From: Sedimentisphaerales bacterium
GTDB taxonomy: Bacteria; Planctomycetota; Phycisphaerae; Sedimentisphaerales; SM23-30
DNA length: 64,000 bases
Assembly (NCBI GenBank): GCA_963666285.1
Contig: OY762711.1
Strand: one strand, 5' to 3'
The notes below the pieces were generated by a model that saw only the letters and a program-made list of their open reading frames with translations, made no database searches and was not told the DNA's origin. Each line of letters starts with the position of its first letter. The first letter of the stretch is position 1. Below are positions 7,742 through 36,627 of this stretch, piece by piece. The position numbers and the translations under genes were made by a program.

Positions 7742-7747
7742 AAAAAA

Positions 7748-7854
7748 GTTGGCGGCGACTTACTTTCACGCTCACGCACTATCATCAGCGTTAGTGCCTT
7801 AGCTTCTGAGTTCGGAAAGGGATCAGGCGTTTCACACTAACTATGACCACCAAC
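7748..7854 (-). rRNA. rrf: 5S rRNA (short, about 107 nt)
   Basis: Minus strand GTTGGTGGTCATAG...CCGAACTCAGAAGCTAAG...GCCGCCAAC with paired ends. Ends approximate. Confidence 0.93.
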
Positions 7855-7990
7855 AGTTCGGAAGAATAACAGGTCCAAAGACCTGATTCATTACACTTGT
7901 TGTATCATATAATATGAGGTAAGGAACAAAATTTGCAGGATACCATTTATAACCAATTATCCTTAGAGCTTTACAGCTCAAAAATAATGT

Positions 7991-10847
<2,857 letters not shown>

Positions 10848-11308: not shown

Positions 11309-11381
11309 TGGAGACGATCGGGATCGAACCGACGACCTTCTGGATGCAAACCAGACGCTCTCCCAGCTGAGCTACGTCCCC
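11309..11381 (-). tRNA. tRNA-Ala(TGC), CCA not encoded
   Basis: GGGGACGTAGCTCAGCTGGGAGAGCGTCTGGTT-TGC-ATCCAGAAGGTCGTCGGTTCGATCCCGATCGTCTCCA folds as a cloverleaf. Confidence 0.96.
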
Positions 11382-11437
11382 TTGAATCGCTGACACTTCA
11401 CCACTGTGACATGCAGCTCTTTATTTACTTGTTATAT

Positions 11438-11554
11438 TTAGCTCAGCTTGTCTTTTAACCATTTGAATAAAGCTGATACTAATACTATGACAAGGAAGAT
11501 GAAACCCATTGATCTAATTAAGGTTCTCATCGATGCCAATATTGTAATAAGCAT
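11438..11554 (-). CDS. Putative 38-aa single-TM small protein between the tRNAs
   Basis: Hand translation: MLITILASMRTLIRSMGFIFLVIVLVSALFKWLKDKLS-stop; GGAGA SD 7 nt before ATG; below the ORF-track cutoff. Confidence 0.6.
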   Translation of the reverse strand: MLITILASMRTLIRSMGFIFLVIVLVSALFKWLKDKLS

Positions 11555-11596
11555 TTAGCTTTCTCCGTTTTACGGTTATCTTAAGCCTGCTAAAAA

Positions 11597-11670
11597 TGGG
11601 CCCAGATGGAGTCGAACCATCGACCTCTCCGTTATCAGCGGAACGCTCTAACCAACTGAGCTATGAGCCC
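11597..11670 (-). tRNA. tRNA-Ile(GAT), CCA not encoded
   Basis: GGGCTCATAGCTCAGTTGGTTAGAGCGTTCCGCT-GAT-AACGGAGAGGTCGATGGTTCGACTCCATCTGGGCCCA folds as a cloverleaf. Confidence 0.96.
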
Positions 11671-11726: not shown

Positions 11727-11755
11727 ATTATATTACTTATAGCTATTTACGTCAA
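11727..11755 (-). promoter_or_regulatory. Sigma70 promoter of the tRNA-Ile/tRNA-Ala unit
   Basis: TTGACG-17bp-TATAAT about 55 nt upstream of tRNA-Ile, followed by GC-rich TCCCGG. Confidence 0.8.
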
Positions 11756-12106: not shown

Positions 12107-13822
12107 ATGGAAGATTTTAAGACATATTTATTAAACCAGAATGTTTTCCAACCATCTGAGTTGGACAATATCCCTGATAATTTACAGGAGCCTTTACACT
12201 ATTGGCTCCTAGGGCAATTTCCTTCCAGGGAAATAGACATCTGGATATGTCTTTCGGAATTCCTGCACACTAAGTTAATATCACCCGATTCTGTCGAGTA
12301 TTCACCAAATCTCAAACTGTTATTGCCGGCAAAGTTAGCTCATAACCTCACAGTCGCTCCTATCGAAATTACGGGGAATACCGTGAAACTTGTTATGGCA
12401 GACCCAGGACAGCTTGATAAATGCGATGAAATTGGCCTGATGCTCAACCTGGACAGCCTATCCGACACTTCGTCAGCAAACCTGGAAGTTATTGGACAAC
12501 TGGCCAGTCCCAGCGATGTCAGGGAGATAATTAAAAGAGTATATGGGCTCGGTGCTGAAACCGTTGAAAATGTAATTATCGAAAATGAATATTCTCTTTC
12601 TGAGTCCGAGACGGCAGATATTTCTCAAGCGATCCATGTTGATATTAACAGCGAAGGCTATCATGATGCCGCAATAATAAGATTTGTTAATCAGCTAATT
12701 TTGGAAGCCATTAAGTGCAATGCCTCTGATATTCATCTGGAACCTTATGAAACAAGCTTCCAGGTACGATATAGAATTGACGGAATGCTGCATACAGAGC
12801 CTGTTCCTTCCAATATTAAAAATCTTGAATCAGCTATAATATCAAGAATTAAAATAATGGCTAATCTGGATATCGCTGAAAAACGTCTTCCGCAAGATGG
12901 ACAAATTAGAATTCAGGCCCTAGGACGCCCTATCGATGTCAGGGTATCTGCTATCCCAACTATGTTTGGCCAGGGGCTGGTATTAAGACTTCTGGATAGA
13001 GAAACTGCTTTTATCAAGTTCGATAATCTCGGCATGTCAGAAAGACATATGAGCATGTTTAAGAATGCAGTATCTATCTCCCATGGCGTTGTCCTGCTCA
13101 CAGGCCCTACCGGAAGCGGTAAAACTACTACATTATATTCGCTGCTCAATGAAATCAATAGAGATAACAGCAAAGTTATTACTGTTGAAGATCCAATTGA
13201 ATATCAACTGGAAAATGTTTCGCAAATCCAGGTTAAACCGGAAATTGGACTTACCTTTACACATTCATTGCGAAGCATACTCAGGCATGACCCTGATATC
13301 ATAATGATTGGTGAAATCCGGGATACAGACACTGCCAGGATCGCAATTTCATCTGCAATGACCGGACATCTCGTGCTGAGCACCCTGCATACTAATGATG
13401 CTACTTCTTCATCTATCAGGCTGATGGAAATGGGAATCGAACCATATCTGGTGGCTTCTGCCCTCGAACTGGTGGCTGCCCAAAGACTTGTCCGACTATT
13501 ATGCCCAAGATGTAAAATTGCCGTTTTAGATAAAAATAAAATACCTGATGATATTCGAGGAAGGCTAACTCCGGGCAAAATATTTGAACCTGTCGGTTGC
13601 AATGATTGTCGCCATACCGGATACAAAGGACGTTCGGCTATAATAGAAATGTTTGAACTAAATGAAGAAATTCGCAATATGATTATAGAAAAGGCGAATG
13701 CTTCTTCTATTAGAAATAAAGCCGTTGAAAAAGGAATGGAAACTTTATACGAAAACGGATTAGAAAAAATTAACCAGGGAATTACCTCACTGGCTGAAGT
13801 ATATCGTGTAGCTGGAAAATAG
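12107..13822 (+). CDS. gspE: GspE/PulE/PilB secretion ATPase
   Basis: ASDIHLEP, LDIAEKRLPQDG, Walker A GPTGSGKTTT, LRHDPDIIMIGEIRD, TGHLVLSTLHTND, two CxxC. Confidence 0.92.
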   Translation: MEDFKTYLLNQNVFQPSELDNIPDNLQEPLHYWLLGQFPSREIDIWICLSEFLHTKLISPDSVEYSPNLKLLLPAKLAHNLTVAPIEITGNTVKLVMADPGQLDKCDEIGLMLNLDSLSDTSSANLEVIGQLASPSDVREIIKRVYGLGAETVENVIIENEYSLSESETADISQAIHVDINSEGYHDAAIIRFVNQLILEAIKCNASDIHLEPYETSFQVRYRIDGMLHTEPVPSNIKNLESAIISRIKIMANLDIAEKRLPQDGQIRIQALGRPIDVRVSAIPTMFGQGLVLRLLDRETAFIKFDNLGMSERHMSMFKNAVSISHGVVLLTGPTGSGKTTTLYSLLNEINRDNSKVITVEDPIEYQLENVSQIQVKPEIGLTFTHSLRSILRHDPDIIMIGEIRDTDTARIAISSAMTGHLVLSTLHTNDATSSSIRLMEMGIEPYLVASALELVAAQRLVRLLCPRCKIAVLDKNKIPDDIRGRLTPGKIFEPVGCNDCRHTGYKGRSAIIEMFELNEEIRNMIIEKANASSIRNKAVEKGMETLYENGLEKINQGITSLAEVYRVAGK

Positions 13823-13877
13823 CTTATCAGTAAATATAAGTAATAATAATCTTCAAACCTATTTTTTGTTAAATCTT

Positions 13878-15359
13878 ATGCTCGGAATAGATATTGGCAA
13901 CAACCAAATAAATATACTCAACCTGAAACGCAAACGCGGTAAATGGACCGTTACTGGTTCCGCCGTAATATCTTATGGCAAAGATCAGCAGGTTGAATCG
14001 ATAGGAAAAAAACTGCTAAATATAATTGGAAAGCAAGGTTGGAATAAAAGAGACGCTGTGATATCTATTGCTAACAAGCCTTGCTTTGTTAAAAGACTTG
14101 AGGTTAATGAAGTTCACACCGGTACTCTTTCGCGTGCTGAAATCGATAACCTTATCAGCAAAGCCAAAAACTCACTTGTTGCCTCTGCTGAAAATATGGT
14201 CTTCGATATTTGGCAGCCTAGACTTTCTCATATCGGCAATCGTTTTGCCCTTATCGGTGCTGCCCAAAAAAGCTCGATATTATTTGCTCGACAACTTGCC
14301 GACTACTGCGGCTTAAAGCTAAAATCTATCGAACTCAGGCCTGTAGCAATATTAAACGGATTAATGAATTGCTGGAACAATGCCGAAGAACAAAATATAG
14401 CAGTAATTTATAAGGATATCTCTCGTTTTGTAGTAGCCATATTTGACAACCTTGGACTTGTTTCTATACAAACCACTCCTATAGGATCAGGTGATGCAAA
14501 TGACGATGCTAACCAAATATTAAGAATATTTAATACTATAAAACTTAAAAGTGACAGTTCTTTACCAAACAGAATATTTCTTTCGGGCATATCTAATACT
14601 GAATTCTCTAAATGGGAAAATGATCTGGGTGCTATTATTGCTCACAATACTTCAATGGAAGTAACTACCTGTGACACTGATCTGGATATTGCCTGGCAGG
14701 CAGATAATTCCGATCATGCACCTGATTTTGCTGGGGCTTTGGGGGCTGCATTTGATGGCGTAGGTGCCAGTCCTGTATCTTTCGATTTTCTACATATAAA
14801 AGAAAAAAAAACGCAGGATAATAAAAACAATAGTCATACTACTCTTCTGATTGCTATCATTTTATTATCGATGCTTGCTTTGATTTTATGGATCAGTATT
14901 GTTGGCCAGAGAAAATCTACTATTAGAAGGCTTGAAAAAGATGTAGCTAATTCGGAACCCTTAAAAACACAAGTTTATGATGCACAGTCTCATTGGGTGA
15001 GTTGTATGAAATATATTCATGAGGCCAAAGGAGGTTCCAGACTGGAATATCTCAAGGTGCTTTATGAAATTTCCAGACGTATGCCTGAAACAGATAAAGC
15101 ATATCTTACAAACCTTTCAGTATACACAGACAAAAATGAAAATGGATATAATGTTAAACTTACGGTAAAGGCCACTGAAGCAACTTTAATTACTGAATTG
15201 ATTGAAAGCTTGAATAAATCCGATAAGTTCAAAGATATCAAGCAGGACGGTGCTAGAACACATGACGAAACGGATACATTCTATCCAATCAGCTTTTCTG
15301 TTACATTTAATCTGAACAGACCTCCTGCCATAAAACCTTATCCGAAAGGAGCAGAGTAG
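13878..15359 (+). CDS. PilM-like cytoplasmic domain plus TM and PilN-like periplasmic domain (GspL-like)
   Basis: LGIDIG actin-fold start, IFLSG, one TM at about residues 328-345, downstream of gspE. Start set at ATG 13878. Confidence 0.65.
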   Translation: MLGIDIGNNQINILNLKRKRGKWTVTGSAVISYGKDQQVESIGKKLLNIIGKQGWNKRDAVISIANKPCFVKRLEVNEVHTGTLSRAEIDNLISKAKNSLVASAENMVFDIWQPRLSHIGNRFALIGAAQKSSILFARQLADYCGLKLKSIELRPVAILNGLMNCWNNAEEQNIAVIYKDISRFVVAIFDNLGLVSIQTTPIGSGDANDDANQILRIFNTIKLKSDSSLPNRIFLSGISNTEFSKWENDLGAIIAHNTSMEVTTCDTDLDIAWQADNSDHAPDFAGALGAAFDGVGASPVSFDFLHIKEKKTQDNKNNSHTTLLIAIILLSMLALILWISIVGQRKSTIRRLEKDVANSEPLKTQVYDAQSHWVSCMKYIHEAKGGSRLEYLKVLYEISRRMPETDKAYLTNLSVYTDKNENGYNVKLTVKATEATLITELIESLNKSDKFKDIKQDGARTHDETDTFYPISFSVTFNLNRPPAIKPYPKGAE

Positions 15360-34727: not shown

Positions 34728-36627
34728 ATCGAGTAGGCGGGGGTATTACTACCCCAACCTCTCACACCACCCGGCAAGCCTGCTAAGCACCAAGGCGGTT
34801 CCCTATGGTCTGTTTGCCAGTTCCTGCCATCTTTCCAGCGTACTTACCAATCCTTGTTCTTTAAACCGTTGCAAATTCATAGCTTGATGAGATTGTGGTA
34901 TCGCACTTTTCCTCCAGAGACCCTTGCCGGACAACGCACCTATCCAGGCTTGATACTCATCAACACCATTTCGCCTATAAAATCTTGCTATTGTATAGAC
35001 TCGCTTCAACTGCTTGAGTTTAATCACTCGCAGTTTACGACGAACCCAACAATCCAATCCTTTTAGCTTGTGTTTACACTGAGCATAACGATAATATGTC
35101 GTCCAACCTGTTAAAGTCATGTTGATCCTGGCAATTATCTCTGAATATCTGCCCGGTTTATTACGCCGGGTAAGGCTACGTACCTTATCCTTAAAACGGC
35201 AGATACTCTTCGGGGCTATACCAAGGTTCCCGTCGCCGAAACAGGCGATAGCCAAGGAAGCTTCTTTCACTTACATGGCCAACCGCCGATTTCTCCTTAT
35301 TAACACGAAGTTTAAGTTTAGACTCAAGGAACTTTGTTGCACTTTCAAGTACCCGTTCACCTGCTCTGGTTGACTGTACATATATATTACAGTCATCGGC
35401 ATAGCGAACAAAGCGATGACCTCGTTTTCCAGTTCTCTGTCGAAATCTGTTAACAGAATATTCGCCAGTAGTGGACTTAGCGGACCACCTTGCGGTGTCC
35501 CGTCTTTACGAGGTATTACTACACCATTCTGCATTAAACCTGCATTCAAAAAGGCTCGTATTAGTTTTAACAGTCGTTTATCCTTGATATAACGAGCTAT
35601 TCGAGCCATCAATACATCGTGGTTTACACGATCAAAGAATTTCTCCAGATCCAGGTCAACTACATAAACATAGCCTCCCTTTACGTACTCACTGGCTTGA
35701 TCTATCGCCTGATGAGCACTTCGACCCGGACGAAACCCATAACTGAGTTCGCTGAATTCACGCTCCAGTATGGGGGTAAGCTTCTGTAGAATACCTTGCT
35801 GAACCATACGGTCTATGGCCGTGGGAATACCCAACTGACGTTTTCCACCGCCGGATTTGGGGATTTCCACCCCTCTTACCGGTGATGGAACATATGTACC
35901 GGCCATTAAGGATTCTATCAGTTCATCTATATGCTCGCGGCACCATGCATACATGTCATCAACGGTCATACCATCGATACCTGCTGCCCCGTTGTTAGAT
36001 ACCACTCGCACATACGCTGTTCGCAGATTGTCTTTATCGACTATCTGCTCCATAAGATGGTCGGTCAGGGGTAAGACTTCGGGATTCGCCGGGATGCAAC
36101 TACACGCCTCTAACCCGGTAGATTGAGTTCCGCTCTCTCCACCGCAGCCGAAGTTCAGGTTGTGCTGAGTTGACAGTGGTCTGTTGTCCATCGAGTCTCC
36201 TGTTATTACGTTCCTGTCCATAAGATTCAGTCCTTCGCAAATATTAAAAGGGAATATTTACTACTATGACCTCTGCTGACTTCTGTAAGGCTCCAATGCT
36301 TCTCGGACATTATAGCCTTGAAACAAATGATGTTGATACCCAACATACCTTACAGACCTCCCGGGGTAAGATTTAATACTTCCGGTCGGGCCTCGCCGGA
36401 TTTACCTTTATCGTCTCCGAATGAGTATCGGGCTTCAGAATCCATTGCTTCCTTACCCGGACGACACCGGCCTTATATCCGATTCCTGTTCGTCGAGTCC
36501 GACTTTTGCCTAAGGCTTCCTTACCACCCAGCGTCACCGCTACGCAGTTGCCTTCGACTTGCGGTTCCGCTCATCACGGCCCGCAGGGGACTTTAACCCC
36601 ATGAGCATTAAATCATGCCCGGCGCAC
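34728..36627 (-). mobile_element. Group II intron, class IIC
   Basis: 5' GTGCGCC at 36627 directly after a hairpin plus T6; domain V AACCGCC...GGTGGTGTGAGAGG with CGC triad; domain VI ending CCTACTCGAT at 34728; RT without endonuclease domain. Confidence 0.93.
34803..36191 (-). pseudogene. Group II intron reverse transcriptase/maturase, frameshifted
   Basis: GAAGIDG, RQLGIPTAIDR, SYGFRPGRS, DLEKFFD, GTPQGGPLSPLLANI. RYADD (35392-35403) lies in a shifted frame between indels at 35425-35428 and 35239-35241. Confidence 0.88.

Follow-up and report, generated by a model that had tools for sequence, protein, structure and literature searches.

A small gene for a predicted membrane protein between tRNA-Ile and tRNA-Ala in one family of Sedimentisphaerales

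Protein genes among stable-RNA genes and the tRNA-Ile/tRNA-Ala spacer

In CPR bacteria, protein-coding genes occur in the spacers of rRNA operons (Lui et al. 2021, PMC8172020), where, according to the accessible text of that report, they often encode homing endonucleases, are larger than the gene described here, and are possibly transcribed separately. Here, by contrast, one protein of 33-41 amino acids (aa) with a predicted membrane segment is encoded family-wide in a spacer of ~200 nt, in a unit to which 16S is not linked. A second precedent is found in the same genome, in which the order tRNA-Thr - tuf - rpmG - tRNA-Trp - secE likewise places protein genes between same-strand tRNAs (we assigned the names tuf, rpmG and secE by recognising the translations). 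However, tuf and rpmG are universal translation genes, are not located between tRNA-Ile and tRNA-Ala upstream of 23S, and include no family-restricted membrane peptide. The first-pass annotation of the locus did not recognise the arrangement, which is less unusual than it supposed given the tuf and rpmG genes between tRNA-Thr and tRNA-Trp and the spacer genes in the accessible text on CPR bacteria (PMC8172020). In the largely open-access literature covered, no report was found that describes this gene or any small membrane protein encoded between tRNA-Ile and tRNA-Ala. The protein family is new, and the arrangement is of a known kind at an unusual, stable site.

Unlinked 16S and 23S-5S rRNA genes are reported from Planctomycetes, with 40 of 40 unlinked reads for the order MSBL9 (Brewer et al., bioRxiv 10.1101/705046); the accessible text of that study makes no mention of any protein-coding gene flanked by the spacer tRNAs. 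In the genome examined here, two 16S genes (near 1,183,650 and 1,451,093 of contig C1) and a single 23S-5S unit (23S at 3,847,989-3,850,847) are all unlinked, the 16S genes being megabases distant from the 23S-5S unit. This genome belongs to the Sedimentisphaerales, which we take to be the same order as MSBL9.

The window that we analyzed is a stretch of 64,000 nt from this genome (contig OY762711.1 of assembly GCA_963666285.1). On its minus strand, tRNA-Ile(GAU) (11597..11670, CCA encoded, the sole copy in the genome) is followed by a 215-nt gap carrying a 38-codon ORF, and then by tRNA-Ala(UGC) (11309..11381, CCA encoded). The ORF occupies 11438..11554, with its ATG at 11554 and its stop ending at 11438, and it is supported as a small membrane-protein gene by its translation, alignment, coding statistics and helix prediction. 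It is preceded by a 42-nt leader containing a Shine-Dalgarno (SD) motif, GGAGA (11562..11566), which lies 7 nt ahead of the ATG and pairs with the 3' end of the genome's own 16S. Behind it, a 56-nt spacer (11382..11437) with a predicted hairpin doubles as the 5' leader of tRNA-Ala. The 23S gene (7989..10847, minus strand, one copy, not linked to either 16S gene) and the 5S gene (7747..7854, minus strand) complete a unit with the order promoter - tRNA-Ile - ORF - tRNA-Ala - 23S - 5S, without 16S. The gap, the GGAGA-7nt-ATG start and the 38-aa frame on the tRNA strand all match what the first-pass annotation had described, as does the hydrophobic core (best 19-residue Kyte-Doolittle mean of 2.47, from residue 12, with a net charge of +2 after the segment).

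A frame of this kind rarely arises by chance. An ATG-started ORF of at least 35 aa that has an SD motif and encodes a membrane segment was found in 0.05% of 20,000 random 215-nt windows of the same genome, and in 0.005% of 20,000 sequences made by shuffling the spacer. Across the 55 tRNAs of the genome, three have a hydrophobic ORF within the next 215 nt, and only the one behind tRNA-Ile(GAU) carries an SD motif.

Coding signature and inheritance of the spacer gene

The ORF evolves as a protein-coding sequence. Its last 26 codons align gap-free in 17 genomes, with identities of 0.62, 0.81 and 0.40 at the three codon positions. Synonymous differences are saturated (pS 0.76, against a pN of 0.27), and pN is below pS in all 136 pairs among these 17 genomes, although the pairs are not independent. 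In seven disjoint close pairs, 57 of 175 synonymous sites differ as compared to 31 of 592 non-synonymous sites, yielding a pooled dN/dS of 0.13 (p = 1e-19). Non-triplet indels were found in the 5' flank in 11 of 11 pairs and nowhere within the ORF, where the only indel is a single one of 3 nt. In every one of the 35 aligned rows the stop codon comes two codons past an invariant Lys, and 10 of 11 library proteins share this spacing. One library protein, P0011, reads through the usual stop into tRNA-Ala, reflecting either a stop loss or an assembly error.

An antisense frame sharing the wobble position is also stop-free over the 78-nt core in all 17 sequences, as one would see if the ORF were a chance frame or the shadow of an antisense frame or of a structured RNA. 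However, the antisense frame has no fixed start or stop and a weaker pN/pS contrast (0.32/0.63, versus 0.27/0.76 for the ORF), and RNAalifold placed 0 consensus pairs over the ORF in the 17 sequences. Together with the rarity in random windows and the close-pair dN/dS, this leaves the non-gene reading barely credible, and the coding statistics already refute it. Sequence comparison thus confirms that the ORF is a real protein-coding gene under purifying selection: the dN/dS check that the first-pass annotation had called for gives about 0.13 in close pairs, and the frameshifts or stops in relatives that it named as contrary evidence are not seen, with the stop position fixed.

Conservation of the SD, which the first-pass annotation had also proposed to check, holds in part. 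An SD-like motif precedes the chosen start (starts were picked by hand) in 21 of 30 orthologous loci and is absent from the other nine, and pairing with the genome's 16S end beats shuffles (p < 0.1) in 16 of 30. The window locus is not among these 16; its SD is weak taken alone, with a duplex energy of −6.6 kcal/mol (p = 0.275 versus shuffles).

To map the gene's distribution we used a profile built from 16 family loci, which were obtained by a DNA search of 41 related genomes followed by spacer extraction. Single-copy orthologues lie directly behind tRNA-Ile(GAU) in 17 of 25 genomes of the family, representing 14 of its 18 genera; counting only genomes with an assembled tRNA-Ile flank, the orthologue is present in 17 of 18. 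The family genomes are 62-99% complete. Eight of them lack the ORF: six have no strong tRNA-Ile match (these are 70-88% complete), in one the tRNA is cut by a contig end, and the eighth (G009), which is 99% complete, has an Ile-Ala spacer of 36 nt (L010 1465-1500) and no copy of the ORF at E values up to 1. The ORF is therefore dispensable in G009.

Outside the family, the profile (E 0.001) found no orthologue in 376 other Sedimentisphaerales genomes, and the 10 Ile-Ala spacers of other families that we examined (10-124 nt) all lack the ORF. Some weaker hits were obtained: in 14 of 141 genomes outside the family there were matches at E 0.004-0.05, mostly in long open frames, and among 398 genomes of the phylum two matched at about E 0.01, each time in a long frame. 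Eight weak matches that we read out (five outside and three inside the family) were partial, missing the C-terminal motif or else a start, and had no adjoining tRNA. Searching the class with one sequence alone reached no further than the genus (3 of 301 genomes), the profile being needed to reach the wider family.

Metagenomes and protein collections gave a similar picture. Among the metagenome loci listed, which number at least 20, 19 of 20 lie directly behind tRNA-Ile and 18 are followed by tRNA-Ala. Loci in named records were labelled Sedimentisphaerales or Phycisphaerae in five of seven cases and Pirellulales in one; the remaining one was spurious. The pattern matches L065 and L076 were discarded as spurious. 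On one 9.5-kb metagenome contig the unit occurs twice as an inverted copy (L052 and L053), which is likely an assembly artefact. A profile search of 1.84 billion protein representatives returned 11 matches, all of the same family, and none of the nine that we looked up is named; the exact 38-aa protein of the window is absent from this collection. The gene marks one family of Sedimentisphaerales, in a spacer that is treated as non-coding and mostly skipped by gene callers.

On a 23S tree of 27 rows (midpoint-rooted, with clade support not formally tested and with genomes having little or no 23S omitted), the 19 family rows split off at 100/99, and the ORF label requires two changes. G009 sits inside the family, on an unstarred inner branch. 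These placements point to one gain of the ORF and one loss, in G009, as the likely history.

The position of the ORF is conserved across relatives, whose synteny the first-pass annotation had suggested comparing, and tRNA-Ile is its sole constant neighbour. Both flanking tRNAs are present in 16 of the 17 ORF-bearing family genomes. In the exception (G019) the unit was split, and the ORF stayed with tRNA-Ile while tRNA-Ala and 23S moved away; at the G019 locus, tRNA-Ile and the ORF are separated by a hairpin with a U-run after it. The 23S gene lies downstream in 14 of 16 other ORF-bearing family loci, and no 16S was found upstream in any of 20 loci (over 1.3-1.5 kb, where the contig reaches so far). 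Upstream, the closest long frames at 28 loci belong to many different families, changing from genus to genus, and include no integrase. In genus g17 (L049 1336-1611, L017 1501-1573, L016 1503-1575), the unit is broken up: tRNA-Ile and the ORF are found together, behind a U-run hairpin, and tRNA-Ala stands alone, with no adjoining 23S. In another genome (G018), the gene for RNase P RNA (L040 115-530) is found ~830 nt upstream of tRNA-Ile, in the opposite orientation.

The protein and the families it resembles

The orthologues are 33-41 aa long and have one hydrophobic segment. An amphipathic N-terminal part (moment 0.43) is followed by an invariant Gly, ~15-19 hydrophobic residues, and a tail of the form W-x-(K/R)-D-K-x-x-stop; in 35 rows, the Gly and the Lys are conserved in 35, the Asp in 33 and the Trp in 32. 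AlphaFold2, run with these 35 rows, predicts one continuous helix over residues 2-37 (pLDDT 86). Small residues occupy positions 5, 12, 15 and 19 of the 26-residue core in 100, 89, 94 and 83% of rows, forming one helical face of Gly-5, Ala-12, Ala-15 and Gly-19. The window copy, with Val, Ser and Lys at core positions 12, 15 and 19, keeps two of these four small residues. The count of Lys and Arg averages 1.7 before and 2.2 after the membrane segment, a modest charge bias that only mildly favours a cytoplasmic C-terminus; N-out/C-in is the most likely topology as predicted from composition.

No significant family match was found in Pfam, NCBIfam, PHROG, PADLOC or PDB, nor did the ORF match DLW-39 (NCBIfam NF038356), even at E 1. 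PDB sequence searches retrieved just EMC3, at E 0.8-1.0, and Foldseek gave no match, as expected of a single helix. In the ESM Atlas, three unnamed clusters of 37-38 aa scored 0.78-0.79, under the useful range, and there was no named match. One member matched in PADLOC at E 0.02, and SecE-like rows at E 0.15 were rejected, as the genome has its own secE. In the viral collections no relative was found; 24 DNA-pattern matches there all score 17 or less on the family profile. The protein is best read as a single-pass inner-membrane protein of a new, unnamed small-protein family.

One named likeness is to the major coat protein of Pf3-type inoviruses. Since the attachment sites of inovirus prophages can be in tRNAs (PMC6813254, accessible text), the gene might be a coat gene left at a tRNA integration site and since domesticated by the host, which could use it, for instance, to hinder the assembly or entry of filamentous phage. 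With 33-41 aa and one segment, the family falls within the size range used for inovirus coats (30-90 aa, one membrane segment) in the accessible text of PMC6813254. Phage_Coat_B (PF05356) was the Pfam family matched by the most members, namely 3 of 35 with a best E of 0.013. In PHROG, the Pf3 coat belongs to phrog_2374, which gave matches at E 0.04-0.13 with the C-terminal register unchanged. The Pf3 coat itself (NC_001418 ORF44) is a 44-aa single-pass protein without signal peptide, whose Gly, Ala and W-I-K align in the same register when the C-termini are flush. Only in this register does it score 25.7 on the ungapped family profile, more than all but one of 13,334 other membrane segments of the genome, although Pf3 was picked after the Pfam match and is thus a selected comparison.

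These similarities weaken on closer comparison. The best Phage_Coat_B match reaches 15.9 bits against a cut-off of 23.5, and family members score 56 or more in leave-one-out tests as compared to 25.7 for the Pf3 coat. Profile-profile comparison (hhalign) gives probabilities of 5% and 2.7%. In reciprocal searches the coat models pick the gene in just one and two of 17 genomes, at E 0.36-0.87, and PF05356 scores above cut-off in none of 201 genomes of the order. There are no relatives in viral collections and no integrase nearby, and we saw no inovirus or prophage context, the gene being flanked directly by tRNAs with unrelated host genes upstream; nor are Planctomycetes named in the accessible main text of PMC6813254. 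Below cut-off, without phage context and at chance level in the reciprocal tests, the likeness leaves a phage origin very unlikely.

A second resemblance is to type I toxins of the Fst/Ldr type, which have ~35 aa, one membrane segment and a Trp followed by a charged tail. The family differs from these in being single copy and in having no conserved Pro-x-x-x-Gly-type motif (Pro occurs in 4 of 35 rows at one column). More broadly, the peptide may self-associate, as a pore, a holin-like protein or a growth-limiting toxin, and be kept low by rapid decay of its excised mini-mRNA, with no classical antisense antitoxin. Its size, single segment and Trp before the charged tail would suit such a protein, and the stripe of small residues could serve self-packing. 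Weak PHROG holin rows (E 0.05-0.6, one or two members) point the same way, as does the folding of the spacers, which is better than that of shuffles (mean z of −2.5, with nine of 20 below −2). The window spacer, also at z −2.5, contains a long helix pairing the SD region with the end of the ORF.

Yet the fold is not shared, with an SD-enclosing helix in just five of 20 loci, and over 30 loci the SD-start region is unpaired at 0.40 versus 0.37 for the spacer, indicating no extra occlusion. No Fst/Ldr/Hok-type family in Pfam or NCBIfam matches at E up to 1 (16 and 35 members), and the gene is single copy and vertically inherited with a near-consensus promoter in front. An antisense promoter-like site was seen in one of 30 loci by a consensus scan, which misses weak promoters, and no Rfam family matches in the Ile-Ala spacer. 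We therefore find a self-associating peptide improbable, and the type I toxin idea of the first-pass annotation is not borne out: there is no toxin-family match, no conserved SD occlusion, and only a single, vertically inherited copy.

Proposed transcription with tRNA-Ile and proposed role

A predicted sigma-70-type promoter, TTGACG-17 nt-TATAAT (11727..11755, minus strand), matches the consensus at 11 of 12 positions. It stands 85 nt in front of tRNA-Ile and is preceded by an A/T-rich tract. The other two genomes of the genus have identical hexamers, and the eight bases after them are the same as well. A first scan of the 130 nt ahead of tRNA-Ile retrieved a site in 16 of 30 loci. When 220 nt were scanned with a looser pattern and six near-duplicate loci were left out, 22 of 24 loci showed a TTGAC-type promoter at 85-197 nt upstream of tRNA-Ile, as compared to 4.3% of random windows; as such windows consist largely of coding sequence, the control is a lenient one. 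Within the Ile-Ala spacer promoter-like sites occur in two of 30 loci.

Further predicted promoter-like sites lie between tRNA-Ala and 23S, in the window at 11275-11248, 11173-11145 and 11085-11057 (minus strand), and sites of this kind (matching at least 10 of 12 positions) are present in eight of the 20 loci in which the region could be measured. The 23S gene can therefore probably also be transcribed without the ORF, from these extra sites. In the same region, a run at 11034-11023 (minus strand) upstream of 23S is presumably boxA-like. On the other side of the unit and divergent from the tRNA promoter, 12107-15359 (plus strand) encodes a PilB/GspE-type ATPase with an MshEN domain together with a PilM/PilN-like gene; the ATPase adjoins the tRNA promoter only in the three genomes of the genus. 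In four RNA runs (X1-X4, small shares of each), coverage was limited to tRNAs, and to those of other organisms.

In the window, same-strand tRNAs bound the ORF on both sides and no promoter or terminator was found in the spacer between them, which is the layout of a tRNA-punctuated mRNA. Because of this, the simplest reading is that the ORF is transcribed together with tRNA-Ile and released by tRNA processing. A protective 5' hairpin after tRNA-Ile was considered as a feature of the ORF and dropped as non-specific, being present in nine of 24 ORF loci versus six of 10 ORF-less spacers.

On this basis we lean, with little more than even confidence, towards a vertically inherited accessory protein of the membrane, driven by the tRNA promoter and made via tRNA processing, with an output that tracks stable RNA. 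The ORF would have been gained once in the tRNA-Ile/tRNA-Ala spacer, at or near the base of the family, and would be transcribed together with tRNA-Ile from the strong promoter ahead of it. RNase P would cut at the 5' end of tRNA-Ala, and RNase E/G is the likely enzyme to cut or trim behind tRNA-Ile. Searches recovered RNase P RNA, RNase E/G and YidC; RNase Z fell below its cut-off. As judged from established tRNA processing, these cuts would free an RNA of ~200 nt with SD, ORF and stop, and translation may take place on the nascent precursor, on the freed piece, or on both, i.e. before or after the cuts.

The peptide would probably be inserted after release from the ribosome, via SRP to YidC or SecY, as proteins under ~50 aa are targeted to SecY or YidC post-translationally by SRP (PMC10502375, accessible text). 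At this size, below the limit of 45-50 aa that follows from the same text (PMC10502375), a peptide that co-translationally tethers the rRNA transcript to the membrane, or acts as an on-ribosome insertion sensor, was rejected. The invariant residues and the small face suggest that the helix packs by that face against a larger membrane protein, as an accessory subunit or modulator; its W-x-K/R-D-K tail would then lie at the cytoplasmic interface. Accessory small membrane proteins are known from transport or respiratory complexes. The spacer location would provide a high output that follows stable-RNA synthesis.

The ORF lies between the tRNAs for Ile and Ala themselves, and it is possible that its translation matters in cis, as an Ile/Ala-sensing leader, as protection from Rho or as tRNA spacing, with the peptide incidental. 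Ile and Ala make up 15% and 12% of residues, versus 12% and 8% around the membrane segments of the genome, and the fixed distance from invariant Lys to stop in all 35 rows could also reflect such a role. However, Ile, Val and Leu replace one another freely, and codon usage is not biased towards tRNA-Ile(GAU); of 170 Ile codons, 46 are AUA, a codon that this tRNA does not decode. Neither a run of sensing codons nor conserved structure was seen over the ORF, in line with the absence of consensus pairs noted above, and no terminator-like site follows the ORF in the window. The distance from stop to tRNA-Ala varies between 5 and 252 nt in relatives, the ORF kept with tRNA-Ile when tRNA-Ala and 23S left (G019), and the invariant Gly, Trp, Asp and Lys suggest function as a protein. 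We consider a purely cis-acting role quite improbable.

RelA/SpoT (PF04607) was found in none of the 25 family genomes, as compared to 11 of 14 controls, and is stated to be absent from Planctomycetes (PMC8622095, accessible text). Any coupling of the gene to growth is therefore unlikely to run through ppGpp, and the stable-RNA or growth-rate control claimed in the first-pass annotation is weakened in its ppGpp sense. The same absence would fit a frozen accident, in which a real protein is expressed at housekeeping level and does a job unlinked to tRNA or ribosome output; so would the gain in one family, the absence from G009, and the extra promoters that can drive 23S separately. Against this, none of the 25 family genomes has a relocated copy of the ORF, though the upstream genes change freely, and in G019, where the unit split, the ORF went with tRNA-Ile. 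We judge such an accident unlikely; were the function indeed unrelated to position, the gene would still represent a new small-protein family, of modest interest.

Under the favoured reading of a tRNA-promoter-driven accessory protein, a conserved gene in the Ile-Ala spacer implies that transcripts of stable RNA can serve as messages too, making the locus a test case for tRNA punctuation in bacteria and a handle on how ppGpp-less planctomycetes might link ribosome synthesis to the membrane. A bolder proposal, which we regard as rather doubtful, is that the Ile-Ala spacer is a recurring expression slot for small membrane proteins, and that in this ppGpp-free family a peptide made from RNA cut out of the pre-tRNA/pre-23S transcript, at a level proportional to stable-RNA synthesis, reports ribosome-making to a membrane complex. 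If true, a free-living bacterium would use a mitochondrion-like, tRNA-punctuated message to couple translation capacity to the membrane, and the complex addressed would be one of protein insertion, energy conservation or envelope growth.

Elsewhere in the genome, contigs C2-C4 are of nearly equal size (65.6, 65.6 and 66.6 kb) and contain no tRNAs. A nine-tRNA array including tRNA-Leu(AAG) is found at 5,226,832-5,229,866 of contig C1, probably on a mobile element, and within the window, positions 36230-36543 (minus strand) match the group II intron domains RF02001 and RF01998.
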